Assembly: GCA_038851755.1 (NCBI GenBank) | Contig: JAWCKR010000011.1 | Coordinates: 1 to 41,492, forward strand | Origin: Candidatus Hadarchaeales archaeon | Lineage (GTDB): Archaea > Hadarchaeota > Hadarchaeia > Hadarchaeales > WYZ-LMO6 | Direction of reading: 5' to 3' | Length of the DNA: 41,492 nucleotides | In this document: piece by piece, positions 1-19,867 of the stretch | Position numbering within the stretch: the stretch's first letter is position 1 | Layout: every line of letters starts with the position of its first letter | Notes under the pieces: generated by a model | The model's input: only the letters and a program-made list of their open reading frames with translations | What the model was told of the DNA's origin: nothing | The model's database searches: none | Program-made: the position numbers and the translations under genes

Positions 1-720
1 ATGCTGGGGTCCGGGAAGGGTCTTGTGGGTGCTGCAGGTCATCACATCCGCTCCCTCCTTGAGGGGGTCCTGGAACTGCTTGCCCGCTATCAGCCCAGCC
101 ACGTGAGCGGCATCGTATCCTATGTATGCCCCAACCTCATCGGCTATTTCCCTGAATTCTTTCACTGGGTGGGGAAAAAGAAGAACGCTCCCTCCGAAGA
201 GGAGCAACTTGGGCTTGACCTCCCGAACCTTCTTCGCTGCCGCATCCACGTCTATGTTCATCTTCTTCTCGTCAAAGGGTAGATTCTCCACCTCGAGCCC
301 ATGGACCGCCCCTGCCGTTCCCCCCATCTTCTTCTTGCCCATGCTTATGTGCCCACCTGAGGGAATAGCGAGACACATCATCCTGTCGCCGGGCTCCGTG
401 AGGGCGGTGTACATGGCAAGGTTGGCCACCACCCCCGAAGTGGGCTGCACGTTCGCGTGCTCCGCCCCGAAGAGCTCCTTGGCCAGCTCTATGCCCAGGA
501 GTTCCACCTGGTCTATGTATTTGCATCCCGCGTAGACCCTCTCTCCAGGCCACCCCTCGGCGTACCTGTGCTGGAAGTCCGTGAGCAGCGCCTCCCTCAC
601 GGCGAGACTGGTGATGTTTTCGCTGGCGATGAGGTTTATGGTCCTCCCCATCCACTCGTGGTGCTGTCGAAGCAGTTCGAAAGTCTGCTCGAAAGCCTCC
701 TTGGGTGTCCTTCCCGTTAT
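1..720 (-). CDS. glyA: Serine hydroxymethyltransferase (archaeal type), 3' end outside window
   Basis: Not in the ORF track (no stop in window). Manual translation gives [44 protein letters not shown] and [11 protein letters not shown] (PLP lysine). Start inferred at ATA 720, overlapping the thrC stop. Confidence 0.95.
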
Positions 721-1946
721 CTCACCACCCCCAGTATTTCCTCCTTCTCCCCCTCTACCTCCACGGGACCTCCGGAGACCCTAACCACCTCCTCAGGGTC
801 CTTCATCACGTTGCCCGTGGCCACGCACACCACCCTTTCATCTCTATCCACCTCACCTGCTTCCACCAGCTTTTTAAATCCTGCCAGAGCAGCCGCACTG
901 GCTGGTTCCACCCCTATCCCCTCCAGCCTCGCCAGCATGAGCTGGGCTTCCACGATTTCCTCATCCGTCACGCTCTCAGCCGTACCTCCAGAGTTCCTTA
1001 TCGCCCTCATGGCCTTGGGGCCGTTCACCGGATTGCCTATTCTGATGGCAGTGGCGATGGTCTCCGGATTCTCCACGGGCACGAACCTTTCAAGACCCCT
1101 CTTGATGGCGTCCACTATGGGCTTCGCCCCCTCCGCCTGAATACCCGTCATCCTGGGCATCCCTCTCACCAGTCCAGTCCTCTGGAACTCTAGGAATCCC
1201 TTGTAGATGGCCCATATGTTGGCGCAGTTCCCCATGGGCACCACCACCCTGTCAGGGACCTCCCACCCCATCTGCTCCGCTATCTCGAAACCTATGGTCT
1301 TCTGCCCCTGGGGTCTGAAGGGGTTCAGGGAATTGAGAAGGTAAAGGTCCTCTCTTTCCAGGCATATCTCCCGCAGCAGGGAAAGGGCCCTGTCGAAATT
1401 CCCCTTTATGGCCACCACCCGCGCACCGTAAACCAGCGCCTGTGCCAGCTTCCCCATGGCCACCTTCCCTGCTGGAAGAACCACCAGACACCTCAGTCCC
1501 GCCTTGGCCGCATATGCCGCCAAGGAGGCTGAAGTGTTACCCGTGGAAGCGCACACTACCGTCTTCACTCCGAACTCCAGCGCCCTGGTGACCCCCACCG
1601 TCATCCCCCTATCCTTGAAAGAACCAGTGGGGTTAGCCCCCTCATACTTCACGCGTATTTCCCTGACCCCCAGCTTTTCCTCCAGCTTCCTGCACCGGTA
1701 GAGGGGCGTCCCACCCTCACCGAGCGTCACTATCTTGCTCTCGTCCTCCACTGGCAGAAAGGGACGGTACTTCCAAGCACGGAGGGGTTCCTTCTCCATT
1801 CTCTTTCGGTCCAGCTTATCCGAAACTTGTTCGAGGTCCAGCTCAATCTCCAGCAGTCCGCCGCATCTGGGACACTCATAGAGCTTCTGGTGTGGGTCCC
1901 TCCTCTCTCCGCACTCTATACATTGGTACTCGAACCAAGGATCCAT
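717..1946 (-). CDS. thrC: Threonine synthase
   Basis: N-terminal CxxC/CxxC zinc ribbon, [18 protein letters not shown] (PLP lysine), [15 protein letters not shown]. Confidence 0.95.
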
Positions 1947-1991
1947 CTTCCCTCCTTCGCGAGCTGGTTAATAGCCTTTCAATCCCTCTTC

Positions 1992-2993
1992 CTACTTCCC
2001 CAGCAAGGTCTGGTGTATGTCCACCAGATCGCCCAAGAGGGAGCTGGAGGTCTCTTGGGGTCCAGCCCCGAACCCGGTGATGGTTATCTCCCTGGCCAAG
2101 TCGAGTTCCAGAGACACTGCGTTGAGGGTGCCGCTAACGGCCAAGGGGTGATGGACGGGCACCAGCCTGGGCGCCACCTCCAGCGTATTCTCGCTGGCCG
2201 TGCCCACCAGCTTCACCGTGAATCCGGCCTCCTGAGCCAAACGCATCACCTGCGGGGTAACCCGCATGATCCCCTCCCTTTTCACCTCCTTCAGCTTCGC
2301 GTTCCTCCCGAGCACAGCGTTTGCCAGAATGGTTATCTTACAGGCTGTGTCCACACCTTCCAAGTCCAAGCTCGGGTCCTTCTCCGCTATCCCCAGCTCC
2401 TGGGCCTCCCTGAGGACGATATCAAGGGGCACGTCCTCCTGGCTCATGCGCGTGAGGATGTAGTTGGTCGTGCCGTTGAGCACTCCCCTTATAGCCAAAA
2501 TCCTGTTCCCGGTGAGAACCTTTCTGGCCAAGCTTATCACCGGAATGGCTCCCCCCACCGAAGCAGAGTACCTGAACTCCACCGATTTCTTCTTGGAGAG
2601 TTCTTCCAGCTCCCTGAAGGCCACCACCAGCGGACCCTTGTTGGAGGTCACCACGTGCTTACCCGAAAGCATGGCCTCCTTTATGTGGGTCAGACCTGGC
2701 TCCCCCGTCTCTATGTTGGTGGGGGTCAGTTCAAAGACCACCTCGCCCTCTACCTCCCTCACCACCTCCTCTCCGCTCATCTTCTTCCCACCCACCACCC
2801 TTCCCTTCTCCGCCAGTTCCGCCAGCTCCCTGAAGGAGAACCCTTCCTCCTTCACCAGCGCCCCGTACTCGTCCACCACGGCGCTCACTTTCGGTGAAAG
2901 TCCGTACCTCTTCCCTAGGAACTCCTTCTTCTCGGAGAGAACTCTGACGAGGGCCCTCCCCAAGTTCCCAAACCCCACGATGATGAGTCTCAA
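1992..2993 (-). CDS. hom: Homoserine dehydrogenase
   Basis: GFGNLG Rossmann motif, HVVTSNKGP, ASVGGAIP, GVLNGTTNYIL, GAGPQET. Confidence 0.95.
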   Translation of the reverse strand: MRLIIVGFGNLGRALVRVLSEKKEFLGKRYGLSPKVSAVVDEYGALVKEEGFSFRELAELAEKGRVVGGKKMSGEEVVREVEGEVVFELTPTNIETGEPGLTHIKEAMLSGKHVVTSNKGPLVVAFRELEELSKKKSVEFRYSASVGGAIPVISLARKVLTGNRILAIRGVLNGTTNYILTRMSQEDVPLDIVLREAQELGIAEKDPSLDLEGVDTACKITILANAVLGRNAKLKEVKREGIMRVTPQVMRLAQEAGFTVKLVGTASENTLEVAPRLVPVHHPLAVSGTLNAVSLELDLAREITITGFGAGPQETSSSLLGDLVDIHQTLLGK

Positions 2994-3493
2994 GTCCCTT
3001 CCTCCACCGCCTTCAACAGCAGAAGACCCTTCTCTCCTGAGATCCTCTCCAAAAGGGAAAGGGCCGTCCCCAGAACCCTCTCATCCCTCCCGTTAAGCCT
3101 CAGGCGCACCGCCATCTCCCCTCTCTCACCCATGGAAAGCCTCATGTCGGAAACCTTCGCCCCGCTGGTCCTTTCCATCCTGTCCGTTATCTCCCTCAGA
3201 TCCTCCACTGTCATCCTGCCCGCTATCAGCACCACCTTCTTGCTGAGTTCTTCCTTCTCCCCCACATGGGTAATCCTGACCCCCTGCACCTTCAGCTCGG
3301 AGAGCATCTTTCTGAACCTGCTCCTGTCACCTATCTCCAGAACCACCGTGACGGGGACCAAACCCAGTCTGGTCTTCTTCTCCCTCCTATGGATCACGCT
3401 CTTGATGTTGCCCCCGAACCTGGAGATGGGCTCAAGGGCCCTCACCAGCTGGCCGGGCACGTCTTCCAGCTCTAACTCCAGTCTGACTAGGAT
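2990..3493 (-). CDS. ACT-domain protein, likely regulatory partner of homoserine dehydrogenase
   Basis: LELEDVPGQLVRALEPISRFGGNIKSVIH is an ACT signature; stop overlaps the hom start (TTGA). Start extended to ATC 3493 (ORF track GTG 3460). Confidence 0.8.
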   Translation of the reverse strand: MLVRLELELEDVPGQLVRALEPISRFGGNIKSVIHRREKKTRLGLVPVTVVLEIGDRSRFRKMLSELKVQGVRITHVGEKEELSKKVVLIAGRMTVEDLREITDRMERTSGAKVSDMRLSMGERGEMAVRLRLNGRDERVLGTALSLLERISGEKGLLLLKAVEEGT

Positions 3494-3514
3494 TGCCCTC
3501 CCCTCCCGAAACCC

Positions 3515-3934
3515 TCAGGACCTCTTCCTCTTTGGAATAATCAAAACTAAAAACCCATCCCTCACCCTCAGGATGCGCTCCTGCGGAACCGCGTTCCGGG
3601 GAAGCTCGAAGGTGGAGAAGTATGCCTTTCCGTCCGCCCTCTTCGCAACGATCTCCAGGGCCCTTCCTCTCGTTCTTATCTCGATGCCCTCTCTACCCAC
3701 ACCAGGCACGCTCATGCAGAAAATCACTTCTCTGGGTTTCTCCAAGCACAGGTGCTCCGTTTCCAGTGTTTCCTTCACCTCCGCCTGCTCCTCCAGGGTT
3801 CTCAGGGCCCTTCCCCTCCGAACCCTCACTTGGGGTGTTTGAGGGCCTTTGACTTCTATCGAAACCTCCTCAGACTTCCTCTCCATCTCCTCAACCATCT
3901 TCCGTATCTTCTCGAAGAAATCCCCTTCGAACAT
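3515..3934 (-). CDS. Hsp20/alpha-crystallin family small heat-shock protein (divergent)
   Basis: MSVPGVGREGIEI...FELP...DGFLVLIIPK resembles the alpha-crystallin domain; DFFEKIRKMVEEM N-terminus is typical of archaeal Hsp20. Confidence 0.75.
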   Translation of the reverse strand: MFEGDFFEKIRKMVEEMERKSEEVSIEVKGPQTPQVRVRRGRALRTLEEQAEVKETLETEHLCLEKPREVIFCMSVPGVGREGIEIRTRGRALEIVAKRADGKAYFSTFELPRNAVPQERILRVRDGFLVLIIPKRKRS

Positions 3935-4048
3935 TTTCCCATCAGAAAATCCTTTTTCAAACCTAATAAATCTCTCGGGTAGACCCCTCGATTTCCACTG
4001 GAACTGTTAATTATTTTTACCCAAAATTTTGTAATGGATATATCAAAT

Positions 4049-4375
4049 ATGGAAAGGGAGTGGATCTTGGGATATATAGAAGCAAAGGGGTGCTTCACCA
4101 CGAACAAAGTGGTAATGGGGAACAGGGTTTACCAGAACCCAGTTTTTTTCCTCACACAGAAGGAAAAGGAGACCCTCCTTTTTTTGAAAGAAGCGACGGG
4201 ACTGGGAGAGGTGAAGAAAACGGGGGGACTCCACCGATGGGAGGTAAGAAAAAAGAGGGAAGTGATAGCGTTGATGGAGTTCTTGGAGGGGGGGTTCAGA
4301 ACCACCCACAGAGCCCGGCAGTTTGAGAAGTGGAAGGAAGGGGTTCTCCAGTGGAAACAGAGGGGGAGGTCCTAA
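4049..4375 (+). CDS. Single-motif LAGLIDADG homing-endonuclease-fold protein, probably inactive
   Basis: WILGYIEAKGCF aligns to the WLAGFxDGEGCF motif, followed by FFLTQKE...L...GLGEV...WEV...T...FEKW. Start is ATG 4049 or 4034. Confidence 0.75.
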   Translation: MEREWILGYIEAKGCFTTNKVVMGNRVYQNPVFFLTQKEKETLLFLKEATGLGEVKKTGGLHRWEVRKKREVIALMEFLEGGFRTTHRARQFEKWKEGVLQWKQRGRS

Positions 4376-4406
4376 CCTTTTAGAGTTTTAGGTTTTTTGA
4401 GAGAGG

Positions 4407-5990
4407 ATGGAAGAAAAGAAGTCGAAGGTGAGGTCCCTCGTTCATGGGGGAGTGCTAGTTCCACCCTACGAGTTCAAGGGGTTGCACATCCTCTATCGAG
4501 GGAAAAGAGTGGACTTGAACCCCCTGCAGGAGGAGATGGCTGTGGCCTTTGGCAGGCATCTCCTGGCGGGCAGGGGTGAAGACAGGGTTTTCGTCAGGAA
4601 CTTCCTCTCAGATTTCAGCGAAGCCCTGGGGTTACCCAAGGACACGGAGCTCGAGCATTTCGACTTCTCGCCGGTGCTGGACTGGCTCAATCGGGAGAAG
4701 AAGAGGAAGGAGGAGATGACGAAGGAGGAGCGCAAGAGGCTGGCGGAGGAGCGGAAGCGTCTGAGGGAGGCCAACAGGGAGAGATGGGGCACGGCCTGGA
4801 TCAACGGGGAGAGGATTGAAGTGAAGAACTACACGGTCGAGCCCCCCTGCGTCTTCGTGGGGAGGGGAAAGCACCCCCAGCGGGGGAGGTGGAAACCCAG
4901 AGTGGAGTACGAAGACATCATCCTGAACCTCTCCCCCGAGGCACCCATGCCTGAGGCCCCGGAGGGCAGGAAGTGGGGCGGGAGGGAGTGGGATCCTGGG
5001 GCTCTGTGGATAGCGAAGTGGAGGGACAAGCTCACGGGCAAGATGAAGTATGTGTGGCTCTCCGACTCCTCCCCCCTGAAGCAGGAGAGGGAGAAGGAGA
5101 AGTTCGACCAGGCTAGGGAGCTGGGAAGGAAGATCGAGAGGGTGAGGGAGCACATAAGGCGGGGTCTCTCAGACCCTGATCCAAAGCGCAGGATGGTGGC
5201 CACCGTCTGCTACCTCATAGACGAGCTGAAGCTGAGGGTGGGGGACGAGAGGGACAGAGAGGAGAGGAACACGGTGGGGGCTACCACCTTGGGTCCAGAG
5301 CACATAAGGTTCGACGGGGGGAGGGTGAGGTTCAGCTTCTTGGGAAAAGACCACGTGCGATGGTCCAAGAGTTTGGAGCCCATTCCCGAGGTTCTCCGGA
5401 ACCTGAAGGAGTTCGCGAGTAGAGGGGAGGAGAGGATTTTCCCGGGGGTGAGTTCGGAGGATGTAAACTCCTTCTTGGGAGAGGCGATGCCAGGTCTCAC
5501 GGCGAAGGTCTTCCGCACCTATCACGCCTCGAAGATAGTGGAGGAGGAGTTGAAGAGGAGGAGGGTGGGGAAGGAGAGCACGGAGATGGAGAAGAAGTAC
5601 GTGGCCAAGATGGCCAACCTGAGAGCCGCGGAGGAGCTGAACCACAAGCGCAAGGTGCCCGCCGGATGGAGGAAGAAGGTGGAGAGGATGAGGGAGAGGA
5701 TAAGGGTGCTGGAACAGAGGATAGCGGAGCTACGGGCGAAACCAGGGAAGAGGACCGAGGAAAGGGTGAAAAAGCTGAAGGAGAGGATAAGGGAGCTCAG
5801 GCTCAGGCTGGAGCTGGAGCGAGAGATAAGGGACTTCAACCTGGGCACCTCCCTCAACTCCTACATCGATCCCAGGATCTACGCCTCTTGGGCCAAGAGG
5901 GTGGGTTGTGGAGTGGAGAAGATTTACTCCAAGTCCCTCCTGAAGAAGTTCTCCTGGGCGGTGGGTCACGACGGGCAAGCCCAGGCCTGA
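4407..5990 (+). CDS. DNA topoisomerase IB, eukaryote-like long form
   Basis: EPPCVFVGRGKHP.RGRWK; catalytic pentad R (LRVGDE), K (FLGKD), R (KVFRTY), H (LNHKR), Y (GTSLNSYIDPR); coiled-coil linker before the Tyr domain. Confidence 0.95.
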   Translation: MEEKKSKVRSLVHGGVLVPPYEFKGLHILYRGKRVDLNPLQEEMAVAFGRHLLAGRGEDRVFVRNFLSDFSEALGLPKDTELEHFDFSPVLDWLNREKKRKEEMTKEERKRLAEERKRLREANRERWGTAWINGERIEVKNYTVEPPCVFVGRGKHPQRGRWKPRVEYEDIILNLSPEAPMPEAPEGRKWGGREWDPGALWIAKWRDKLTGKMKYVWLSDSSPLKQEREKEKFDQARELGRKIERVREHIRRGLSDPDPKRRMVATVCYLIDELKLRVGDERDREERNTVGATTLGPEHIRFDGGRVRFSFLGKDHVRWSKSLEPIPEVLRNLKEFASRGEERIFPGVSSEDVNSFLGEAMPGLTAKVFRTYHASKIVEEELKRRRVGKESTEMEKKYVAKMANLRAAEELNHKRKVPAGWRKKVERMRERIRVLEQRIAELRAKPGKRTEERVKKLKERIRELRLRLELEREIRDFNLGTSLNSYIDPRIYASWAKRVGCGVEKIYSKSLLKKFSWAVGHDGQAQA

Positions 5991-6027
5991 AAGCCGGTTT
6001 TTTACCCCCGGGAGGGGAAGGAATCCG

Positions 6028-6990
6028 ATGGACGCCTACGAGAGGGTGAGGAGGGGGGCCGCAGAGGTGGTGACGGAGGAGGAGCTGAGGGAGGTGATGA
6101 AGGGAAGGCCCACGGTCTACTGCGGATACGAGCCCTCGGGAAAAATTCACTGCGGTCATGCCCTCACCGCCTTCAAGCTGCTTGACTTCCAGAGGGAGGG
6201 CGCCAAGGTGATAGTGCTCCTGGCTGACCTTCACGCCTACCTGAACCACAAGGGCACCCTGGAGGAGATAAGGAAGACCACGGAGTACAACAAGGAGTGC
6301 TTCATAGGGATGGGACTGGATCCCGGGAAGACCGAGTACAGGCTGGGATCGGAGTTCCAGCTCAGCCGGGAGTACATGATGGACGTGCTCAGGATGTCCA
6401 CGGACACCACCCTCCTGAGGGCCAGGAGGGCCATGGCGGAGATAGCCAGGAAGGCAGAGAACCCTGATGTGGCCCAGGTGCTCTACCCCCTCATGCAGGC
6501 GGTTGACATAGCCCACTTGGGGGCGGAGGTGGCGGTGGGAGGGGAGGACCAGAGGAAGGTTCACATGATAGCCAGGGAAAAGCTGGAGAAACTGGGACAC
6601 AGAAAACCCGTTTGCGTGCACATGCCCCTGCTGCACGGTCTCGACGGGGACATCAAGATGTCCTCCTCGAAGGGGAACTTCATAGCGGTGGACGACCCTC
6701 CGGAGGAGATAAGGAAAAAGGTACAGAAGGCCTTCTGTCCTCCCAAGCAGGTGGAAGGGAACCCCGTGGTGGAGTACGCCGAGCATTTGGTGCTCCCCCT
6801 CACGGGTGGGCTGGAGGTGAGGAGATCCGAAAAGCACGGTGGCACGCTTTTCCTGAAGGAGGCTGGCGAGCTGAGGAGGAGGTACATGGAGGGAGGGCTT
6901 CATCCCGCCGACCTCAAGCCGGCGGTGGCCGAGGGTCTCGTCGAACTCTTCCGTCCCGTGAGGGAGTACCTGGGGAAGAGAGGAGCCTGA
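6028..6990 (+). CDS. tyrS: Tyrosyl-tRNA synthetase (archaeal type)
   Basis: YCGYEPSGKIHCGH, LADLHA, YPLMQAVD, GGEDQRK, KMSSSK. Confidence 0.95.
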   Translation: MDAYERVRRGAAEVVTEEELREVMKGRPTVYCGYEPSGKIHCGHALTAFKLLDFQREGAKVIVLLADLHAYLNHKGTLEEIRKTTEYNKECFIGMGLDPGKTEYRLGSEFQLSREYMMDVLRMSTDTTLLRARRAMAEIARKAENPDVAQVLYPLMQAVDIAHLGAEVAVGGEDQRKVHMIAREKLEKLGHRKPVCVHMPLLHGLDGDIKMSSSKGNFIAVDDPPEEIRKKVQKAFCPPKQVEGNPVVEYAEHLVLPLTGGLEVRRSEKHGGTLFLKEAGELRRRYMEGGLHPADLKPAVAEGLVELFRPVREYLGKRGA

Positions 6991-7003
6991 GGGGGTTTGC
7001 CCC

Positions 7004-7011
7004 TTTATAAA
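7004..7011 (+). promoter_or_regulatory. TATA box for minD
   Basis: TTTATAAA about 30 nt upstream of GTG 7041 in a GC-rich background. Confidence 0.55.
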
Positions 7012-7040
7012 TCCCTTCCCCCAACCTCTGGGGGGGAAAG

Positions 7041-7877
7041 GTGGGAAGGAAAAACCTTCGCAGGTCCATCGCCATCGCCTCAGGTAAGGGGGGCACGGGA
7101 AAGACCACCATGACGGCCAACCTGGGGGTGGCCCTGGGGGCACTGGGCAGGAAGGTGACCATTCTGGATGGGGATCTGGCCATGGCCAACCTCTCCATCG
7201 TGATGGGGCTCACCAAGTTCAGGACGAACCTGCTCGATGTCCTGATGGGTAGGGCCAGGGTGGAGGAGGCCGTTTACCGGAATTACGGGATAAACGTGAT
7301 ACCCACTGGCTTCAGGTTCGAGGAGGCCCACGAGGCCCTCTTCAAGGTCAGGCCGGAGAAGGTGGAGGAGGTGGTGAGGAGCATCCTGGAGGAGGCGGAG
7401 TTCCTCCTCATCGATGCCCCGGCGGGGATTCAGGACTCCACCATCCTTTCGCTGGCTGCCGCCAGGGAGATGATCGCCGTATGCAACCCCACCTACACCA
7501 GCCTGGTGGACTGCTACAAGACGGTGAGACTGGCCAACGTCCTCGGTTCCTGGACCAGGGGGGTGGTGGTGAACCGGACGGGCAAGAGCGCGGACCTCTC
7601 CACGAGGGAAGTGGAGGAGTTCATGGGCCACACGCTGGGTGCCGTACCCGTGCTGGCCGAGGTGCCGGAGGACCCCGCGGTTCAGGAGGCGGAGAGGGAG
7701 GGTGTGCCGGTGGTGGTCTATGACCCCGAGTGCAGGGCCTCGCTTGCCGTCCAGGCTCTGGCCGAGGTGCTGGTGGGTAAGGCCGGACCCCCTTACGGTT
7801 TCCCGGGGGAGAAGGGAAGGGACGAGACGGTGGCGAGGCTGGTCAGGGCCCTCACGGGCAGACCCGACAGGGTGTAG
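7041..7877 (+). CDS. minD: MinD/ParA family ATPase
   Basis: Deviant Walker A SGKGGTGKTT, DGDLAMANL, IDAPAG, VVNR, PEDPAVQEA. Confidence 0.9.
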   Translation: MGRKNLRRSIAIASGKGGTGKTTMTANLGVALGALGRKVTILDGDLAMANLSIVMGLTKFRTNLLDVLMGRARVEEAVYRNYGINVIPTGFRFEEAHEALFKVRPEKVEEVVRSILEEAEFLLIDAPAGIQDSTILSLAAAREMIAVCNPTYTSLVDCYKTVRLANVLGSWTRGVVVNRTGKSADLSTREVEEFMGHTLGAVPVLAEVPEDPAVQEAEREGVPVVVYDPECRASLAVQALAEVLVGKAGPPYGFPGEKGRDETVARLVRALTGRPDRV

Positions 7878-7878
7878 G

Positions 7879-7950
<72 letters not shown>

Positions 7951-7974
7951 GCTTAAACTGGGAGGGGTACCTTA

Positions 7975-9120: not shown

Positions 9121-9196
9121 AGTGTCTTCACTTCTGGGTCTAAATAGTCGGACCAGGGTGCTCGAGCCCGAGAGCTGATCGGGATAAAAGGTGAGG

Positions 9197-9301
9197 CGCC
9201 GGGGCTGGGATTTGAACCCAGGAAGCGCGTAAGCGCTAACGGGTTAGCAACCCTTGGCGGGTCTTTCGACCTGTCGCCGTACCTGGCTGGGCCACCCCGG
9301 C
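9197..9301 (-). tRNA. tRNA-Ser(GCT) with a 19-nt intron at position 28/29 (intron 9254..9272)
   Basis: Acceptor GCCGGGG/CCCCGGC, discriminator G, long variable arm AGCGC-TTAC-GCGCT, T arm CTGGG-TTCAAAT-CCCAG. Removing AGGTCGAAAGACCCGCCAA restores the anticodon arm ACGGG-TTGCTAA-CCCGT. Confidence 0.93.
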
Positions 9302-9400
9302 TTATCCTCTTTCAGTTTCTCCCACTTTAACCCTATCGGGGCACCCGCTCGGAGAGCCGACGGGGGTGAGAAAGACCGAGGTCAGGGCGATCTGGTCAAG

Positions 9401-9796: not shown

Positions 9797-9821
9797 TCCT
9801 TAGGCTTGTGGGTTCCCCCGC

Positions 9822-9827
9822 TATATA
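9822..9827 (-). promoter_or_regulatory. TATA box for rps6e (probably leaderless mRNA)
   Basis: TATATA about 25 nt upstream of the ATG, with purine-rich BRE-like bases upstream of it. Confidence 0.5.
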
Positions 9828-9976
9828 GGTTCTCTCCACCTCAGGACCGGGGGGCCAACTTATTTATGTGGTTTCCGAGAAGAAAGAGTGAAGAGCGTGA
9901 TGGGGGTTGGGGGGATGTCGGAGATTAAATCGGGTCGGCTGAGTCCCTTCCACGCTCTACCGAGGGTATAAGGGAG

Positions 9977-10132
9977 ATGATAAGCCCGCCCACCTGGGAA
10001 AAGGTGAAGTGCCCTCTCTGCGATAAGAGAGTTTCCCTCCCTAACCTGGTTCCTCATCTCTACCGGGAGCACGAGCTGACCCTCTCTGAAGCCAGGGAGT
10101 TCCTCCAGAAGTTCGCGGGCTTGAAGTCCTGA
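9977..10132 (+). CDS. Small C2H2-type zinc-finger protein (51 aa)
   Basis: Below the ORF-track cutoff. MISPPTWEKVKCPLCDKRVSLPNLVPHLYREHELTLSEAREFLQKFAGLKS: C-x2-C-x11-H-x4-H. GAGGG and GGGAG purine runs upstream; stops 2 nt short of the convergent aIF5B stop. Confidence 0.75.
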   Translation: MISPPTWEKVKCPLCDKRVSLPNLVPHLYREHELTLSEAREFLQKFAGLKS

Positions 10133-10134
10133 GG

Positions 10135-11919: not shown

Positions 11920-11975
11920 CGATGGATATCTCTACCTTTCTCTATAAGGAAGCAGCAAGTCCGGCACCGGGCAGT

Positions 11976-12188
11976 CTATGAGGTTCCTTTTTCCCCGCCC
12001 CGCGCCCCGCGCCCTTTCCTGTATTTCTCCGTCCACCTGGTCCAGTCGGGCCTTCTACCCAGCTTGAAGTTGCGCTCGCACTTGGAGGAGCAGAAGTAGA
12101 GGAGGCTCCCGTCCCTCCTCACGAACATGGTACCCGTGCCGGGGGCGACCTTCCCCCCGCAGAAGGAACAGCGGAAGCTGGCGGGCAT
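11976..12188 (-). CDS. rpl24e: 50S ribosomal protein L24e
   Basis: CSFCG...PGTGTMFVRRDG...FCSSKC...WT. Confidence 0.95.
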   Translation of the reverse strand: MPASFRCSFCGGKVAPGTGTMFVRRDGSLLYFCSSKCERNFKLGRRPDWTRWTEKYRKGRGARGGEKGTS

Positions 12189-12407
12189 TCAGGGCACCCT
12201 TATCTCCTTGGCTTCCCTCTCCGTTTCCCTGAGCGTCAGGATGTCCCCCACCTGGACGGGACCCCTCACGTTCCTGGTCAGAATCCTCCCCTTGTCGGGT
12301 CCCTCCAGCACCTTGCACCTCACCTGCTTGACCTCTCCCGTCACCCCAGTCCTTCCCTTGATCTGAAGTACCTCTGCTGGATAACCTAGTCTCTGCTCCT
12401 CAGGCAT
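12189..12407 (-). CDS. rps28e: 30S ribosomal protein S28e
   Basis: [35 protein letters not shown]. Confidence 0.97.
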
Positions 12408-12411
12408 TTTC

Positions 12412-12783
12412 TCATCGCTTCAGCTCTTTGAGCCTGGAGAGGATCTCCTTCACCAGGGGTGCGGCCTCCCCCTCCTCCACGATGGCCACGGCGGCCGAGG
12501 AGACCTCTATCCCGGAGGCGGCCCCCAGCTCCAGCTTCTTTGGCACGTACACGTAGGGGATGCCCTTCTCCTCGCACAGGAGGGGAAGGTGGGCCACCAC
12601 CTCCGGTGGGTCCACATCCTCCGCGATCACCACCAGCTTGGCCTGCCTGCGCTCCGCTGCCTTGACCGTCTCGTTCACCCCCTTCCTTATCTTCCCCGTC
12701 TTCCTGGCCTCCTCCACCGCATCGTATACCTTCTCGGCCAGGTCCTTCGGCACCTCGAAGCGCACGTAGATGGGTTTAGCCAC
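12412..12783 (-). CDS. rpl7ae: 50S ribosomal protein L7Ae
   Basis: [39 protein letters not shown]. Confidence 0.97.
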
Positions 12784-12789
12784 TCGATC

Positions 12790-12813
12790 ACCCTCCGCTT
12801 TCCCTCATCAGGT
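12790..12813 (-). promoter_or_regulatory. Kink-turn in the rpl7ae 5' UTR overlapping the Shine-Dalgarno sequence
   Basis: ACCU-GAU-GAGG-GAAAG-CGGA-GGGU: C-stem ACCU/GGGU, 3-nt bulge ending in U, tandem G.A pairs. TATA (TTTTTAAA) at 12835..12842. Confidence 0.7.
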
Positions 12814-12842
12814 CATACTATTAAGGGAGGTCGGTTTAAAAA

Positions 12843-13418
12843 CTATCGGGACTCCACTTTCTCGAAGTACCTCCGGAAGAGGGGACCCAGCTCCTCGGGA
12901 CCCCTCAGGATTTCCACCCCCTCCATCCTCCTGAGCCTCTTCACGTTCTCCACATCCTCCCTCCTTATCCTCAGCCTCAGCTCCTCGCCGCTGGGGAGCC
13001 TGGTGACGGTGAACCCCTCCTCCAGGTCGCAGGGCATCACGTACACGGGGACGGGGGGATGGACCTTCAGGGCCTGCAGGGCGGAGTTGGTGAGGAGGGA
13101 GTCCCCTATCCCCACCGCTATCTTGGCCACCGTGTTGGAGGTGGCAGGGGCGATCAGGAGGAAGCGGTAGGAGCCCCTCTGTAGGGCCCCGGCCAGGAAG
13201 GGCTGGTTGGGGCCCCGCTCCACCGAAAGCCTCCCGAAGGTCCCCTCCAGTTCCTCCCAGAGACCGTACATCCTCACCACCTCCTCCCCGGCCTTTGAAA
13301 GGAAGACCCGGATTTCCACCCTGCCTTCGTACTCCTTCGCCAGCCTTGCCATCTCCCCCACGATTTCCCTCAACCTGTCCCCGCTCCCGGTGATCCCCCA
13401 GGCCACCCTCTCAGCCAT
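12843..13418 (-). CDS. afpA: Archaeoflavoprotein AfpA (HFCD flavoprotein family)
   Basis: VAWGITGSG, FLSKAGEEVVRMYGL, IAPATSNTVAKIAVGIGDSLLTN, PVYVMPCD. Confidence 0.85.
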   Translation of the reverse strand: MAERVAWGITGSGDRLREIVGEMARLAKEYEGRVEIRVFLSKAGEEVVRMYGLWEELEGTFGRLSVERGPNQPFLAGALQRGSYRFLLIAPATSNTVAKIAVGIGDSLLTNSALQALKVHPPVPVYVMPCDLEEGFTVTRLPSGEELRLRIRREDVENVKRLRRMEGVEILRGPEELGPLFRRYFEKVESR

Positions 13419-13995
13419 ACCTGTTCAGCGCCTCCGCGAACCTCTTCAGGGTTTGCTCCAGGCTCCTCAGCCCCTCCTCGTCCCTTTCCGCTCCCTCCGG
13501 CAGGTCCCTGCTCCAGAAGGTGGCTCCCAGGTTGGCTCCAAAGGCCCCCCCGCTTACCGGAATCACCCCGTTGAGGAGGTAGAAGGTGTGGATTTGGAGG
13601 AGGGCCAGCTCCTGTCCACCCATCCTGTCCCCCCCCACCGCTATCCCCATCCCCACCTTTCCCCTCAGGGCTCCTGGGTGGGAGGCCAGGAGGGCCCTGG
13701 TGCGGTCCATCACGGTCTTGAGCTGTGCGCTGCAGCCCCCGTTGTACACGGGTGTGGCCAGGATGAGCCCCCTCGCCTCCAGCAGGTGTCCGTACAGCTC
13801 CTGCATGTCGTCCTCCAGCGCGCACTTTCGGTGCTTCAGGCAGAAGTCGCAGTGCCTGCAGTACCCCAGGTTCTTGCCCCTCACGGTGAAGAAGCGGGTG
13901 GAGAAACCCCTTTCCTCCAGCCCCTTCAGGGCTCTGAGCAGAACCCTTTCCGTGGACCCCATCCTGGGGCTTCCGCAGATTCCCAGGACCAGCAT
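13411..13995 (-). CDS. Iron-sulfur flavoprotein (Isf, flavodoxin-like)
   Basis: GICGSPR, compact Cys motif CRHCDFC-x5-C, ATPVYNG, GGDRMGGQE. Start set at ATG 13995; the longer ORF-track call overlaps gltX. Confidence 0.88.
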   Translation of the reverse strand: MLVLGICGSPRMGSTERVLLRALKGLEERGFSTRFFTVRGKNLGYCRHCDFCLKHRKCALEDDMQELYGHLLEARGLILATPVYNGGCSAQLKTVMDRTRALLASHPGALRGKVGMGIAVGGDRMGGQELALLQIHTFYLLNGVIPVSGGAFGANLGATFWSRDLPEGAERDEEGLRSLEQTLKRFAEALNRYG

Positions 13996-14000
13996 CCCCT

Positions 14001-15692
14001 CTACCTGTGTGCGAAGACGGCTGATATCTCCCTTCCGGTTTCCTCCACCCTGACGAACCCGTAGCGTTCGAACTGAACGATTTCTCCAGGCTTCACCCCC
14101 CTGAGGGCAGGCTCTCCCAGGCCCTCCTCCACGGAGCCGTCGGGCCTCAGCACCCTTACCCCCACGGGATTCCCGGACACCCACTGCACCTTGGGCACCC
14201 CAGGCAGGAGCTCCAGGCCCCGGAACTCGGCCTCCGGTGGCGACCTGGAGACCAGGGAGACGTTCATGAGGTCCTTCAACCTGAAGACCTCCCCCTCCCT
14301 GAAGGACTCCAGGTCGCCGGGGGGGAGGAAGACCAGCAGATATCCGTCCCGATAGAGGAGGGGAAGGCGGCGTTTACCCCTCTCGGGATGGGAAGGGTGA
14401 AGGGGGAGTTCCACCTCCTTGAGGTCAGGTGCACCCCTCACCCTCACCCAGACCCCGGAGGGGACGAAGAAGTACCTGAGGGCCAGGTCGTCCACGAGCT
14501 TCCGGTTGTGGGCCTCCAGGCTCTCCCAGCTGAGGGAGGAATCCACGGGGGTCAGACCCACCTCCAGGATCACCCTCCTTATGCTCTCGGGGAGGAAGCC
14601 CCTCCTCCTGAGGGCGGAGATCGTTCCCAGCCTCACGTCGTCGTAGCCCTTCAGCTCACCCCTCTCCACCGCCCTCACGATCTCCGTTTTGCTGAGCTTG
14701 CTTCCCGCCAGGTTGAGGCGTCCGTACTGCACCACGGTGGGGTACTCCCAGCCCAGCAGCTGGAAGAGGACGCGCTGTCTGGCCTCGTTGACCTCATGTT
14801 CCTTCCCCCTTATCACGTGGGTGATCCCCATCTCGTGGTCATCCACCGAGACGGAGAAGTTGTAGAGGGGCCACACACGGTACCTGTTCCCCACCCTGGG
14901 ATGGGTGGCCTCCACCACCCTGAAGGCGGGCCAGTCCCTCACGGCCGGGTTGGGGTGCTGGAGGTCCGTCTTCAGGCGCACCACCGCCCTCTCCTCTCCG
15001 TACTTACCCTCCCTCATCCCTCTCCACCTCTCGAGGTGCTCGGAGGGGGGGAGGTCCCTGCAGGGGCATGGCAGGCCCCTGTCCCTCCTCTCCTTGAACT
15101 CCTCGGCCCTGCACACGCACACGTACGCCTTCCCCTCCCCCAGCAGCCTCTCCGCCACCCCGTAGTAGAGCTCCAGCCGGTCGGACTGGAAGAACTCCTC
15201 GTCCCAGCTCATCCCCAGCCAGCGCAGGTCCTCCTTTATCCGCTCGTACATCTCCCCCCTGGCGTTGGCCGGGTTGGTGTCCTCGAACCTGAGGACGAAC
15301 TTCCCCCCGTACATGCGCGCGTACTCGTGGCTCAGGAGGGCAGCCCGCACGTGGCCCAGGTGCAGCGGCCCGTTGGGGTTGGGGGCGAACCTGGTGACCA
15401 CCCTTTCGTACTTCTCCACCTCAGGGAGTTCGGGAAGTCCCTTCCTCCTCTCCCTCCTCTCCCTGGGCCTCACCCCCAGCTCCTCCAGCTTCCTCACCTG
15501 CTCCTCGGGGGTCATCCCGTTCACCCCGGAGAGAACCTCCCTCACCAGGGGGAGGATCTCCTTCAGCCTGGGGCGCAGCTCCGGGAACTCCCCGGCGATC
15601 CTCCTCAGCACGGGGTCCAGCAGGGCCTTTCCCCCGTGCTCCACCGCGTTCTCCAGGGCCAGCCTGATCAGCCTGCTCCTGAGTTCCTCCAA
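14001..15692 (-). CDS. gltX: Glutamyl-tRNA synthetase (archaeal type)
   Basis: TRFAPNPNGPLHLGH, LRFEDTNP, THVIRGKEH, LSKT, QFERYGF. Confidence 0.97.
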   Translation of the reverse strand: MEELRSRLIRLALENAVEHGGKALLDPVLRRIAGEFPELRPRLKEILPLVREVLSGVNGMTPEEQVRKLEELGVRPRERRERRKGLPELPEVEKYERVVTRFAPNPNGPLHLGHVRAALLSHEYARMYGGKFVLRFEDTNPANARGEMYERIKEDLRWLGMSWDEEFFQSDRLELYYGVAERLLGEGKAYVCVCRAEEFKERRDRGLPCPCRDLPPSEHLERWRGMREGKYGEERAVVRLKTDLQHPNPAVRDWPAFRVVEATHPRVGNRYRVWPLYNFSVSVDDHEMGITHVIRGKEHEVNEARQRVLFQLLGWEYPTVVQYGRLNLAGSKLSKTEIVRAVERGELKGYDDVRLGTISALRRRGFLPESIRRVILEVGLTPVDSSLSWESLEAHNRKLVDDLALRYFFVPSGVWVRVRGAPDLKEVELPLHPSHPERGKRRLPLLYRDGYLLVFLPPGDLESFREGEVFRLKDLMNVSLVSRSPPEAEFRGLELLPGVPKVQWVSGNPVGVRVLRPDGSVEEGLGEPALRGVKPGEIVQFERYGFVRVEETGREISAVFAHR

Positions 15693-15702
15693 GTCTCTCC
15701 CT

Positions 15703-16701
15703 TTACACCCGGCGCTCGATTACGAACTCCGTCAGCTCCTCTAAAAAGCTGAGAGCCTCGGACCTGCGGAAGCCGCGGAGGAGTTCCCTGGCCCTGCCGG
15801 AGAACCTCAGCGCCCTCTCCTTGGTCTTCTCCAGGATGCCCCTCCCTTGCAGGAGGGAGATCACCCCTTCCACCTCCTCCCTGGGGGCCGCGGGATTCCC
15901 CAGCACCCTCAGAAGCTTCTTCCTCTCCTCCCCCCTGAGGGTCTGGAGGGCCAGGGAGACCACCAGCGTGCGTTTGCCCTCCAGGAGGTCGGAGCCCACG
16001 GGCTTGCCCAGTTCTCCCTTCTCCCCCACCAGGCCCAGGATGTCGTCCTGGATCTGGAAGGCTATTCCCAGGTTCTTCCCGTATTCCCCCAGCCTCCTCA
16101 CCTGGGAGGAGGTCCCTCCCCCCAGCAGGGCCCCGGCCGCGGCGGAGGCCCGCATGAGGGCCCCGGTCTTGAGGGCCACCATCTCCACGTATTCCTCCTC
16201 CCTCAAGCTCAGGCGCCGCGAGAAGAGCATGTCCAGGGCCTGCCCCCTGCTCAGCTCGAAGCTCGCCCTGCTCACGATCCCGAAGAGCTCAGCCGTCCTC
16301 TTTCCCTCCAGCTTTATCCTGGAGGCGTTGAGGGAGAGGGCCTCGAAGACCTTGGCGAAGAGGGCGTCCCCGGCGAGGATGGCCATGGGCTCCCCCCAGA
16401 GCCTGTGCACGGTCTTCACCCCCCTCCTGAGGTCAGCGTGGTCCATGATGTCGTCGTGGATGAGGGAGAAGGTATGGAGCAGCTCCAGGGCGGCGGCGGT
16501 CTCCAGCGCCCTCTCCGCCCTCCCCCCCACCACCTCGCAGCAGGCCAGGGTGAGGCAGGGGCGGAGCCTCTTCCCCCCAGCCTCCAGCAGGTGCCTGGAG
16601 GCCATGGCGAGCACCCTGGGCTTCATCCCCGGCGGGAGGAGCGCGCTGAGGGTCCTCTCCACCGCAGGGTTCCTTTTGCTGATGTACTCCAGGACGCTCA
16701 T
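15703..16701 (-). CDS. idsA: Geranylgeranyl diphosphate synthase / polyprenyl synthetase
   Basis: GGKRLRP, FSLIHDDIMD...RRG, KTGAL, FQIQDD, GKPVGSDL. Confidence 0.93.
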   Translation of the reverse strand: MSVLEYISKRNPAVERTLSALLPPGMKPRVLAMASRHLLEAGGKRLRPCLTLACCEVVGGRAERALETAAALELLHTFSLIHDDIMDHADLRRGVKTVHRLWGEPMAILAGDALFAKVFEALSLNASRIKLEGKRTAELFGIVSRASFELSRGQALDMLFSRRLSLREEEYVEMVALKTGALMRASAAAGALLGGGTSSQVRRLGEYGKNLGIAFQIQDDILGLVGEKGELGKPVGSDLLEGKRTLVVSLALQTLRGEERKKLLRVLGNPAAPREEVEGVISLLQGRGILEKTKERALRFSGRARELLRGFRRSEALSFLEELTEFVIERRV

Positions 16702-18008
16702 TCCGCCAGCCTCAGGGGTTTCCCGTTCTCCAGGAGGTGGAGGCGATCCTCCCCGTACCCCAGCTCCCTTCCCAGCCTCATCATGGCCTCCAGCTTCTCG
16801 GGGGTCCCGTGGCAGGGCAGGAGGTGTTTGGGGGAAAGGGCCCGCAGGAACTCGGCCGTGTCGGCCCTGGCGGCGTGGCCGGAGACGTGCACATCCCGGT
16901 GTATCCTGGCGCCCTGGACCAGCAGCTTGGTCTCCAGGATGCTCCTGTTGTTCTGGTTGATGGGATTGGGGATGACGCTGGCCGAGAAGATCACCTGGTC
17001 CCCGTCCTGGAGGCGGAAGGGCAGCTTCCTGTCCGCTATTTTGCTGAGCACGGAGGTGGGCTCCCCCTGGTGGCCCGTGCAGATCAGCACGTAGTCCCCC
17101 CTGGAGCCGTTGGCCTTCTTCAGGAACTTCTTGATGGGGCCGGGTGAGCCGTGCACGGGGAGGTCGTGGGGCAGGTGGGGCAGGTTGAGCTCCACGGCGG
17201 CGGAGAAGTAGTTCTTCATGGACCTTCCCACCAGGACGGGTGTCCTCCCCAACCCCTCGGAGATCTCCACGATGGATCTTATCCTGGTCAGGTGTGAGGA
17301 GAAGGTGGTGACCAGCAGGGCCCTGCCGTCCTTGTCCGCCTTCTCCATGGTTTCCTCCAGCATCTCCCTGGCCTTTGCCTCGCTACCCGTGGGCCCCGGT
17401 TCGTCCACCCTCACCGCTCCCACCAGTGCGGCCTCCAGTCCGTCTCCCACCTTTTTCTTCAGTTCCTCCAGGTCGGTGGGCGGGCCCAGGAGGGGCGTCT
17501 CGTCGAGCTTGAAGTCGGTGGCCAGGAGGAGGGAGCGCTCCCCTTCCCTCAGGAGCAGGAAGACGGTCTGGGGGATGCTGTGGTTGGCGTGCAGGAACTC
17601 CACCTCCAGGTCCCCCACCTCCACCCTCTCCCCTGGCTTCACGGGGACCAGCTCCAGCTTCTCCTCTCCCAGCACCAGGCGCTTCACCAGCTCCAGCGTG
17701 AAGGGAGTGCCGTAGAGGGGCGCCCGGTAGGGACGGGCCAGCTTTCCCACCGCCCCGATGTGGTCCAGGTGGCCGTGGGTGAGGAAGATGGCCTTCACCT
17801 CCTTCTTCCTCAGGGGGCGGTCGTCGGGGATGGCGCTCACCCTCACCAGCTCCTCCAGGCTCATCTCCGCCAGGTTGGCATCCTCGAAGGCCTGAATGGC
17901 GTCCAGCCTCACCCCCATGTCCACCACCACGTACCCGTCGCCGAAGCTCACGGCCGTCATGTTCCTGCCCACCTCCCCCAGCCCGCCCAGCGGAAGCACC
18001 TCAAGCAC
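16698..18008 (-). CDS. rnj: Archaeal RNase J (beta-CASP)
   Basis: [40 protein letters not shown]. Confidence 0.93.
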
Positions 18009-19074
18009 CCTTCTCCCTCCTCTCCGTCCTCAGCCCCCTGGAGAGGAACCACTCCCTGGTCCTCCCCGTCACCACCAGCGGGACCTTCTTGAGCTCCCCC
18101 ACGCGCCTGCATCCCGTGAGGAACATGGCCACCCTGAGCTCCCGCAGGAATCCGTCCAGCCATCCCTCCAGCGCCCTCCTGCCCCTGGAGGCCGCCCTGA
18201 GGATGGGGAGGGCCACCCCCACCAGGTCAGCCCCCAGCGCCATGGCCTTGGCGGCGTCCAGACCCGAGCGTATTCCTCCGCTGGCTATCACTGGCACCCT
18301 GACCGCCCTGGACACCTCTGCCGTGCACACGGCCGTGGGGATGCCCCAGTCCCAGAAGGTGTGACCCAGCGAAGCCGAGTCTTGGTTCCTGAGGGCCTCC
18401 ACCCCTGCCCAGGAGGTCCCCCCCGCCCCGCTCACGTCTATGGCTGCCGCGCCCGCCTTCTCCAGCTTCCTGGCCACCGCACCGCTGATACCCGCCCCCG
18501 TCTCCTTGGCTATCACGGGCACCCGGACTCCGGCGCATATCCTCCCGAACCTGGCGAGGGCCCCCCTGTAGTCGGGCTTCCCCTCTTTCTGCACCACCTC
18601 CTGGAGGGGGTTCAGGTGAATGGAGAGAGCATCGGCCCCTATCATCTCCACCGCCTTCCTGGCCTCCTCCCCTTCCTCCCCGGAGAACTGGGAAATCCCG
18701 AGGTTGGCCACCAGGAAGACGCTGGGTGCCACGTCCCTCACCCGGTACGTGTCGGCCAGGTCCTTCCTCTCCAGCGCCGCCCTCTGGCTCCCCACCCCGA
18801 AGGCCAGCCCCCTCTCCTCGGCCACGGAAGCCAGCAGGCGGTTGAGCTTCCCCCCTTCCGCGTGTCCCCCGCTCATGGGCAGGATCAGCAGGGGTGCTTC
18901 GAGCTTCCTCCCCAGGAAGGTGGTTCTCAGCTCCACCTCCTCGGGGGAGAGTTCCGGGAGGGCCTGGTGGAGCAGGAAGACGTCCTCCAGGCCCGTGGTG
19001 TTCCAGATCATCTCCACGTTCTTCCTGAGGCAGATCTCCATGTGGGACCTCTTCCGTTCGCTGATGGACCCCGT
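18001..19074 (-). CDS. fni: Type 2 isopentenyl-diphosphate delta-isomerase
   Basis: [45 protein letters not shown]. The conserved RKxxH motif lies upstream of ATG 19041, so the start is placed at ACG 19074. Confidence 0.93.
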
Positions 19075-19078
19075 GCCC

Positions 19079-19867
19079 TCACCTCCTTATCAGGGTGCCC
19101 AGGCTCCGGTCACCCTCGAGCGCCCTCCTGAGGACCCCCTCCTTGGAGGCGTTCACGATCTGCGCCTCTATCCCCCTCTCCGCCAGCCTCAGGAGCTCCA
19201 CGACCTTTCCCAGCATCCCCCCCGTGACATCCCATCCGGAGGAAGAGAAGGAGGGCCTCATCCTCTCCCACTCCCTGGGAGTGATGAGCTTTATGAGTTC
19301 GGCCCTGGGGTTCCTCCTCGGGTCCTCGGTGAAGACCCCATCCACGTCCACGCCCAGCACCACGCGCTGGGCCCTCAGGCGGAGGGCCAGGTGGGCGACG
19401 AGCTTGTCACCCGAGAGGATGTTGATACCCTGCTTGAGGTCCAGCACGGCATCGCCGTAGAGCACGGGGAGAAGGCCCAGCTCCACCATCCTCTCCACGG
19501 GTCCCAGCTCCATGACCTTCACCTCTCCCCCTTCCAGCAGGCAGCAGGCCGAGGGGGGGACGGGCACCGCCGGGATTCCCTCCCTTCCCAGCTCCTCCAG
19601 CACACAGAGGTTCAGGCGCTCCATCGCCCTCCTCACCTCCGCGAACCCCTGCAGCTGCTCGGGCCTCCTCAGCCCCCCGGTGATATCGTGGCGCTTGGCG
19701 AGGGGGTGGCCGAAGGAACCACCACCGTGGACCAGGACGAGTCCCCTCCTCCCCCTGAGCTCCCGGGCGAGCCTCCTGAGGGTTTTTCTCCTGACCGAGA
19801 ACTCCCTCTCCTTGTTCGTGATCACGCTTCCCCCCAGCTTCACCACCACCGGACGGGAGGGGCTCAG
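19079..19867 (-). CDS. ipk: Isopentenyl phosphate kinase
   Basis: [42 protein letters not shown]. Start is CTG 19867 or GTG 19849, not the ORF-track 20014. Confidence 0.92.

Follow-up and report, generated by a model that had tools for sequence, protein, structure and literature searches.

Candidate near-cognate start codons behind Shine-Dalgarno motifs in housekeeping genes of a Hadarchaeales archaeon

Introduction

Archaea combine fidelity factors of the eukaryotic type (aIF1, aIF2) with Shine-Dalgarno (SD) pairing of the bacterial type. The present work concerns the choice of start codons in contig JAWCKR010000011.1 of a Candidatus Hadarchaeales archaeon (assembly GCA_038851755.1), referred to below as the window, i.e., the whole stretch of 41,492 nucleotides (nt) that was analysed. 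An earlier reading of this DNA from its letters alone (the sequence-only reading) had proposed that three of its housekeeping genes, namely glyA, an ACT-domain gene and idi, start at ATA, ATC and ACG, respectively. Comparison with related genomes makes it likely that near-cognate codons behind an SD motif set the start of these genes, and of others found in the course of the analysis, where they would be read by the normal initiator tRNA.

Near-cognate starts are known from several systems. Table 11 of the NCBI genetic codes allows CTG, ATT, ATC and ATA as rare starts, ACG being absent from this table, and AUU starts the infC and pcnB genes of E. coli. In archaea, according to parts of a review, GUG and UUG are permitted besides AUG, and eIF1- and eIF2-type factors are held in common with eukaryotes (Asano, 2014; PMC4705826). 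For 36 groups of close genomes with 61,358 AUG starts in all, passages of Belinky et al. (PMC5622118) give two switches from AUG to CUG and one to AUU; such genes are called few there, and the counts rest on annotated starts. For Methanosarcina mazei, part of a ribosome profiling (Ribo-seq) study lists CTG as the start of 5% of 314 unannotated small open reading frames (ORFs) (PMC11456600). A literature search, made mostly outside subscription journals and without supplements, found neither near-cognate starts in Hadarchaeota nor conserved CUG, ACG or AUH starts of archaeal housekeeping genes.

As with the rare starts of table 11, the codons considered here are near-cognates that would be read by initiator tRNA behind an SD motif; unlike them, they are found in about a dozen genes (purA, argB, idi, glyA and secD among them) of one small archaeal genome and are conserved across species. 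The likeness to E. coli infC ends at autoregulation, of which there is no sign here, aIF1 of this genome starting with ATG. The codon classes CUG, ACG and AUN are also those of eukaryotic near-cognate initiation by Met-tRNAi, but an SD in fixed register stands here in the place of scanning and Kozak context. CTG as a proposed archaeal start is shared with M. mazei; the cases described in that part of the M. mazei study are novel small ORFs detected from footprints (PMC11456600), whereas those described below are long conserved housekeeping genes whose CTG is homologous to the ATG or TTG of relatives.

Genomes and samples

The window is contig C11 of genome G000, a metagenome-assembled genome (MAG) of 1.25 Mb in 26 contigs, 93% complete, with a GC content of 62.5%. 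Twenty related genomes were searched: four of the same genus (G001, G002, G003 and G004), one (G005) from a second genus of the family and 15 from other families of the order, including G013 and G018. Gene names are taken from profile matches, except for thrC, tyrS, rpoK and a transglycosylase gene, which were named by eye. Window DNA is held by nine sequencing runs, all of them hot-spring metagenomes from three studies. Two runs labelled metatranscriptomic are probably DNA; for one of them (X4), a single G>A is all that sets its difference counts apart from those of X6, a DNA run. The organism attains mean word depths in the thousands in X4 and X6. Contigs from the sequencing runs were taken as decisive for a site only where they showed no differences from the window or where the listed differences made up their total, which was the case for run X2 at glyA and run X1 at idi.

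Proposed near-cognate starts of glyA, the ACT-domain gene and idi

The features at the glyA start are the following:

718-720, minus strand: proposed glyA start ATA, overlapping the thrC stop TAA (717-719) as ATAA
721-732, minus strand: SD-like run GGGGGTGGTGAG of glyA, in register GGTGGT-GAG-ATA, SD register score 8.0
1-717, minus strand: glyA (serine hydroxymethyltransferase, SHMT) coding sequence after ATA, matching NF000586 (1.4e-88) and PF00464 (9.4e-58) and running off the window
717-1946, minus strand: thrC, named by eye from its translation

The glyA frame is open from position 780, and its first canonical codon, an ATG at 651-649, is residue 44 of this open frame. SHMT profiles align from residue 31-32, i.e., 12 residues ahead of that ATG. 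The codon homologous to the proposed ATA is GTG in G003 and ATG in G004 and G005; an ATG is found one codon downstream in G001, and three codons downstream in G002 and G011. Across the thrC stop, the sequence reads GTGA in G003, ATGA in G004 and ATAA in G000, so that the glyA start resembles the coupling of genes by ATGA or GTGA overlap, with the difference that the start codon itself is non-canonical. On this alignment, ATAA is one G-to-A change away from ATGA, with the thrC stop kept. A contig of run X2 spans 600-1483, the glyA site included, with 0 differences.

In the ACT-domain gene, the proposed start is ATC:

3491-3493, minus strand: proposed start ATC, 21 nt after the upstream stop TGA (3517-3515)
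3496-3507, minus strand: SD-like purine run GGGAGGGGAGGG in front of ATC, SD register score 5.5
2990-3490, minus strand: coding sequence of the ACT-domain protein, stop (2990-2992) included, matching PF01842 with 29.3 bits (cut-off 27) over residues 11-75

The first canonical codon of this gene is a GTG at residue 19, within the first ACT strand, and position 2 of the Pfam ACT profile aligns at residue 11, ahead of this GTG. Among 14 loci, the codon at the same site is ATC in G000, G003 and G002, ATT in G001 and G005, and ATG (seven loci) or TTG (two loci) in other families. ATC or ATT is hence shared by all four genomes of the genus in which the gene was located and by G005 of the second genus, five genomes in all. 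In G003, the downstream GTG is replaced by GTA. The 10 codons from ATC to the first GTG show, in four species, 2/0/8 variable sites at codon positions 1/2/3.

The third gene, idi, follows ipk and would start at ACG:

19072-19074, minus strand: proposed idi start ACG, 4 nt after the ipk stop TGA (19081-19079)
19079-19088, minus strand: idi SD AAGGAGGTGA, whose TGA is the ipk stop codon; SD register score 9
18001-19071, minus strand: idi (type 2 IPP, i.e., isopentenyl diphosphate, isomerase) coding sequence, stop included, matching TIGR02151

With 389.6 bits against a cut-off of 281.3, over profile positions 1-337 of 338, the protein belongs to TIGR02151. The match to profile position 1 falls on residue 10 of the open frame, six residues ahead of its first ATG (residue 16). 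Comparison of 12 loci gives ACG at the start codon in G000 and G004, GTG in G003 and G002, and ATG in G005; G001 has GCG there and ACG three codons downstream, and in other families ATG or TTG is found one codon further upstream. At residue 16, where G000 has its first ATG, G004 has CTG. A contig of run X1 spans 14377-19200 with two differences, both listed, at 15255 and 17277, so that none falls at the idi start.

Conserved, profile-matched residues precede any canonical start in all three genes, relatives have ATG, GTG or TTG in place of the near-cognate codon, and the register scores place an SD motif in front of each; on these points the sequence-only reading is borne out. It had also named assembly errors as what would overturn it. 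Assembly or consensus errors might be suspected in a MAG of 26 contigs and 93% completeness, for which run X1 is possibly the source sample. However, the same non-canonical codons are found in separately assembled genomes of other species, as comparison with sister genomes shows for idi (ACG in G000 and G004), for the ACT-domain gene (ATC or ATT in five genomes) and for secD (CTG in 5/5 genomes, see below); the X2 contig matches 600-1483 exactly; and only start codons are changed, by base substitution, the frames being intact. Since relatives carry the same or canonical codons at these sites, the start codons are taken to be real, heritable and at true start positions, and errors of assembly are extremely improbable as their source.

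Putative near-cognate starts across the genome

The sequence-only reading had called for homology-guided mapping of starts across the genome, which was carried out on genes called in G000 with a codon log-odds model. The comparison genome was G013 (1.19 Mb used, GC 48%), and best-hit pairs were searched for a conserved block (at least 5 of 8 identical residues) starting upstream of every canonical start. In G000, 35 of 476 evaluable genes were flagged by this rule and 8 were kept after vetting by hand: idi (ACG), the ACT-domain gene (ATC), argB, purA, the HcyBio gene, secD and a B3/4-domain gene (all CTG), and, more weakly, fdhD (ATA). The pattern thereby extends beyond the window, where its density is high, as had been claimed: three sites in about 45 genes, against 8/476 genome-wide (binomial P for at least three, about 0.04). 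In G013, 28 of 477 evaluable genes were flagged and about five were kept, i.e., tyrS (GGTGAT-CAA-ACG), the archaeosine tRNA-guanine transglycosylase gene (GGTGAT-GTT-ATT), rpoK (ATT), a regulator-like gene with ATA, whose next canonical codon lies 89 codons on, and one unclear case.

Four genes of G000 come in addition to the mapped set: glyA, whose frame runs off the contig, an AMMECR1-type gene with CTG, and two genes found by an SD scan, encoding a HacA-family aconitase large subunit and an FtsX-type permease, both with CTG. This brings the total to 12 supported genes in G000, out of about 1,200 by our estimate; some of the genes with near-cognate starts are probably essential. On these comparisons, CTG is the main class of the putative near-cognate starts in G000, a codon that the sequence-only reading had merely suspected. 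Two further genes, a Tsr3-like gene and ipk, are ambiguous.

The start codons of relatives alternate between canonical and near-cognate at most of these genes. CTG is found in G000 and G003 for purA (TTG in G001, G002 and G004), in G000, G003, G004 and G002 for argB (TTG in G001, ATG in G005), and in G000 and G002 for the HcyBio gene (TTG in G003). The HacA-family gene has CTG in G000 and G003, TTG in G002 and G001 and ATG in G004; the FtsX-type permease gene has CTG in G000, G003 and G001 and TTG in G004; the B3/4 gene has CTG in four genomes, GTG in G004 and TTG in G005; and the AMMECR1-type gene has CTG in G000 and TTG in G002. For fdhD, the codon is ATA in G000, ATC in G003 and ATG in G001 and G004. 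CTG starts secD in 5/5 genus members, with ATG in G013, and the nearest downstream GTG of this gene is missing in G004, G001 and G002. Protein profiles point to the same codons: position 1 of NF003295 falls on the CTG of purA, whose P-loop GDEGKGK precedes the first canonical codon, position 1 of NF002000 falls on the CTG of the AMMECR1-type gene, and the HacA-family profile begins two residues past CTG. In all, profiles align upstream of the first canonical codon in glyA, the ACT-domain gene, idi, purA, the HacA-family gene and the AMMECR1-type gene.

The variety of codons bears on the proposal that mRNA C-to-U editing restores canonical starts, CUG becoming UUG and ACG becoming AUG. As a matter of sequence pattern, both CTG and ACG become canonical after a single C-to-U change, and a genomic ACG at a start position is also what is found in plant organelles, where ACG start codons are edited to AUG. 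Such editing cannot mend ATA, ATC or ATT, however, and would leave the ATH starts unexplained, i.e., those of the ACT-domain gene in five genomes, glyA, fdhD and the G013 genes; to our knowledge, no mRNA C-to-U editing has been described in archaea. Editing is hence a very unlikely explanation.

Among canonical starts, counted by the crude rule that each conserved block is assigned the closest canonical codon ahead of it, ATG, GTG and TTG account for 217, 193 and 42 of 452 in G000, and for 250, 103 and 108 of 461 in G013, ATG making up only about half in both genomes. The statement that GTG and TTG starts are frequent in this DNA holds roughly by this count. An extension test within the genus, G000 against 400 kb of G002, was rejected: it gave 92 "extensions" of at least 12 residues, many in regions of overlapping genes, and is uninformative because close genomes align in other-frame and intergenic DNA too. 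An outgroup control on 287 kb of G022 (GC 38%) yielded 55 gene pairs, of which 0-1 were doubtful cases; this sample is too small to serve as a baseline. The sequence-only reading had suggested relaxed start-codon selection as a feature of the lineage. Near-cognate starts may instead be found broadly among little-known lineages and not be peculiar to Hadesarchaea.

Coding constraint upstream of the canonical codons

Ten genes were pooled, each aligned in three to five genus genomes. The 151 codons from the proposed start to the first canonical start show 34/25/96 variable sites at codon positions 1/2/3 (chi-square p = 2.7e-13), and the 100 codons just upstream in the same frame, which are about twice as variable, show 64/73/76 (p = 0.58). 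Coding constraint can hence be said to start at the proposed codon, given the third-position excess after it and the even spread before it.

These counts bear directly on the possibility that the near-cognate start is dead and that translation begins at the following ATG, GTG or TTG, giving a protein with a shortened N-terminus. A canonical codon does lie 5 to 23 codons downstream in every G000 case, and the ATA of glyA is specific to the G000 species. But the codons that would be skipped evolve as coding, purA would lose its P-loop and the ACT-domain gene its first strand, and some relatives with the near-cognate codon have no canonical one at the downstream position, i.e., G003 for the ACT-domain gene, G004 for idi and G004, G001 and G002 for secD. 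Restart at a downstream codon therefore appears quite unlikely.

Ribosome-binding sites and upstream context

The 16S rRNA 3' end is GATCACCTCCT in 8/8 relatives examined; these tails were used here because the 16S rRNA gene was not found in the G000 contigs. ATG and TTG starts peak at GGTGA followed by 4 nt. Ten near-cognate starts had been identified from homology and not through their SD. Nine of them score at least 5.5 in a GGTGA-N4/5 register, fdhD being the one that fails; among canonical genes (n = 451), this score is reached by 22% on the best candidate of each gene and by 9.8% on the nearest one (binomial P = 9.7e-6). Typical contexts are GGAGGTGAG-GGC-ACG for idi, GGTGAT-TCC-CTG for purA, GGTGAT-GAG-CTG for argB and GGTGGT-CAC-CTG for the HcyBio gene. 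CTG taken alone is SD-enriched (8/107 vs 207/7324, odds ratio 2.8, p = 0.012), as one of many codons tested. SD-like purine runs are found everywhere in the G-rich genome, and the composition skews of the window fit purine-rich coding strands.

Three of the 12 near-cognate hits of the pooled SD test (see below) were set aside: g0_510 and g0_282, where a downstream GTG and a downstream ATG fit, respectively, and an ACG in front of fdhD, which sits in the conserved end of the upstream gene.

The position of the starts relative to neighbouring genes brings in termination-reinitiation, which taken alone would be a restart after the upstream gene without free codon selection, limited to coupled genes. 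The ATA of glyA overlaps the thrC stop, the ACG of idi and the ATC of the ACT-domain gene lie 4 and 21 nt past a stop, and the starts of the AMMECR1-type, B3/4 and HacA-family genes are likewise close behind one; except for that of the ACT-domain gene, these starts lie within a few bases of the upstream stop or overlap it, which comes close to ATGA/GTGA coupling. The upstream stop forms part of the SD itself in idi and the AMMECR1-type gene, and in the B3/4 and HacA-family genes it is immediately 5' of the SD-like run or overlaps its edge. By contrast, purA, argB and the HcyBio gene show no stop/start overlap; they are preceded by in-frame stops rather than by an adjoining gene end, and follow TATA-like boxes about 30 nt upstream, which suggest promoters of their own. 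The same SD register is found at both kinds of gene. Reinitiation as the sole explanation is quite unlikely, and it is more aptly regarded as one route that contributes at some genes. The sequence-only reading had named SD or coupling as the driver: the SD register supports the former, and coupling does not seem to be required at purA, argB and the HcyBio gene.

Many ATG starts of G000 have a TATA-like box about 26-30 nt upstream and no SD, which suggests that leaderless transcripts exist beside SD-led ones in this genome.

Initiation machinery and proposed mechanism

The aIF1 gene (PF01253) is present in 21/21 genomes and starts with ATG in G000, G003, G001, G004 and G005; no near-cognate start of the infC type is found on this fidelity-factor gene there. 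In G018, the aIF1 (SUI1) gene has CTG where the other eight genomes shown have ATG, the next GTG lying inside a Cys-x2-Cys motif; such a weak start on the gene of a fidelity factor would be reminiscent of infC. The initiator tRNA of G000 (contig C10, 4379-4472, plus strand) has a CAT anticodon, an A1:U72 pair, a GGG/CCC anticodon stem and an intron after position 37. It was found, along with two other CAT tRNAs, by an Rfam tRNA search and with an intron option, ARAGORN without introns having given no tRNA-Met. Nothing points to a special CUG-reading initiator. The sequence-only reading had offered altered fidelity of aIF1, aIF1A or aIF2 as a possible cause; on this, the analysis covered the presence of aIF1 and the features of the initiator tRNA, which is normal.

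In the mechanism proposed here, translation would start from near-cognate codons, CUG most often and also AUA, AUC, AUU and ACG, which would be read by the ordinary initiator tRNA with its CAU anticodon. Strong pairing of the SD with the 16S 3' tail GAUCACCUCCU would put the P site on the codon about 3-4 nt past a GGUGAU-like element, and two matching codon bases might then be enough. With the SD doing most of the work, the start codon could drift, TTG to CTG or ATG to ATA or ACG, and the gene be kept. Such drift would have taken place both at operon-internal genes (glyA, idi and the ACT-domain gene) and at genes with an apparent promoter of their own (purA and argB). That initiation occurs at these codons, and that it does so with methionine, is what we infer from the comparisons.

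Several points weigh against initiation at near-cognate codons. The mapping candidates were vetted by hand, and a canonical codon lies only a few codons away in the B3/4 gene, the Tsr3-like gene, fdhD and ipk. Two proteins would keep their core domain if made from a downstream codon, argB matching TIGR00761 from residue 34 and the HcyBio gene PF01837 from residue 27. When all near-cognate codons upstream of the first canonical start are pooled, they are not SD-enriched (12/348 vs 203/7083, p = 0.51). As to glyA, its ATA is found in the G000 species only and could be a recent, mildly harmful mutation, and the strain contigs of runs X4 and X6 break near 710-740, at the glyA start. Finally, part of the review by Asano describes Sulfolobus aIF1 as having rejected an AUU model mRNA in vitro (PMC4705826).

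A wider form of the proposal may be put forward tentatively, at somewhat less than even confidence. Start sites would be chosen mainly by SD register (GGUGAU followed by about 3 nt) and not by codon identity, both in Hadesarchaea and possibly in a large number of uncultured archaea, so that any near-cognate of AUG would work and codons would drift freely among AUG, GUG, UUG, CUG, ACG and AUH; 1-2% of genes, essential ones included, would then be without a canonical start at any given moment, and a matching share of database proteins would be truncated.

Implications for annotation

According to part of its description, Prodigal considers only ATG, GTG and TTG, and leaves aside ATA, ATT and CTG (PMC2848648). 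Gene finders of this kind would for that reason truncate or shift the genes described here, purA losing its P-loop, and the resulting errors would be passed on to pathway reconstructions and to protein families derived from these genomes. A lineage that keeps CUG, ACG and AUH starts in housekeeping genes would also be a natural system for asking how far SD pairing overrides the codon-anticodon check, and the alternation of TTG with CTG, and of ATG with ATA or ACG, at homologous starts would provide a gauge of selection on start codons beyond the canonical three.

The ipk gene and other features of the window

The sequence-only reading had counted ipk as possibly a fourth gene without a usable canonical start, and two sites are relevant here:

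19841-19849, minus strand: three in-frame GTG codons of ipk, an available canonical start, at IPK profile positions 1-3
19865-19867, minus strand: the CTG proposed earlier for ipk, overlapping the stop of the upstream gene as CTGA

The protein belongs to NF040647 (240.8 bits, cut-off 120), position 2 of which aligns at the second GTG. The GTG triplet is kept in G003 and G002 and reads GTG GTG GTC in G001, and the claim does not stand. The CTG codon is CTG in G000, G003 and G002 and GTG in G001, and the stretch from it to the GTG codons differs by whole codons only in G002 and G001. A CTG start is not needed at ipk, but it might be used, since G001 has GTG at the same codon. In other genomes, the codon at the ipk start position is ATA (G013), ACG (G007), GTG (G006) or ATG (G005 and G020), each with a TTG three codons downstream.

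Further observations concern other parts of the window and of the genome. A small free-standing gene at 3986-4372 (plus strand) matches the LAGLIDADG endonuclease family PF00961 with 27.2 bits (cut-off 23.1); it lies upstream of a topoisomerase-like gene, named by eye, at 4407-5990. Downstream of an aIF5B-like gene, at 9849-10031, a strain about 99% identical (runs X4 and X6) shows five single-base indels within 183 bases. Several tRNA genes of G000 carry introns and were missed or mislabelled by ARAGORN without its intron option. The initiator tRNA gene is one of these, and another is a weak tRNA match (35.4 bits) inside the window at 9197-9301 (minus strand).

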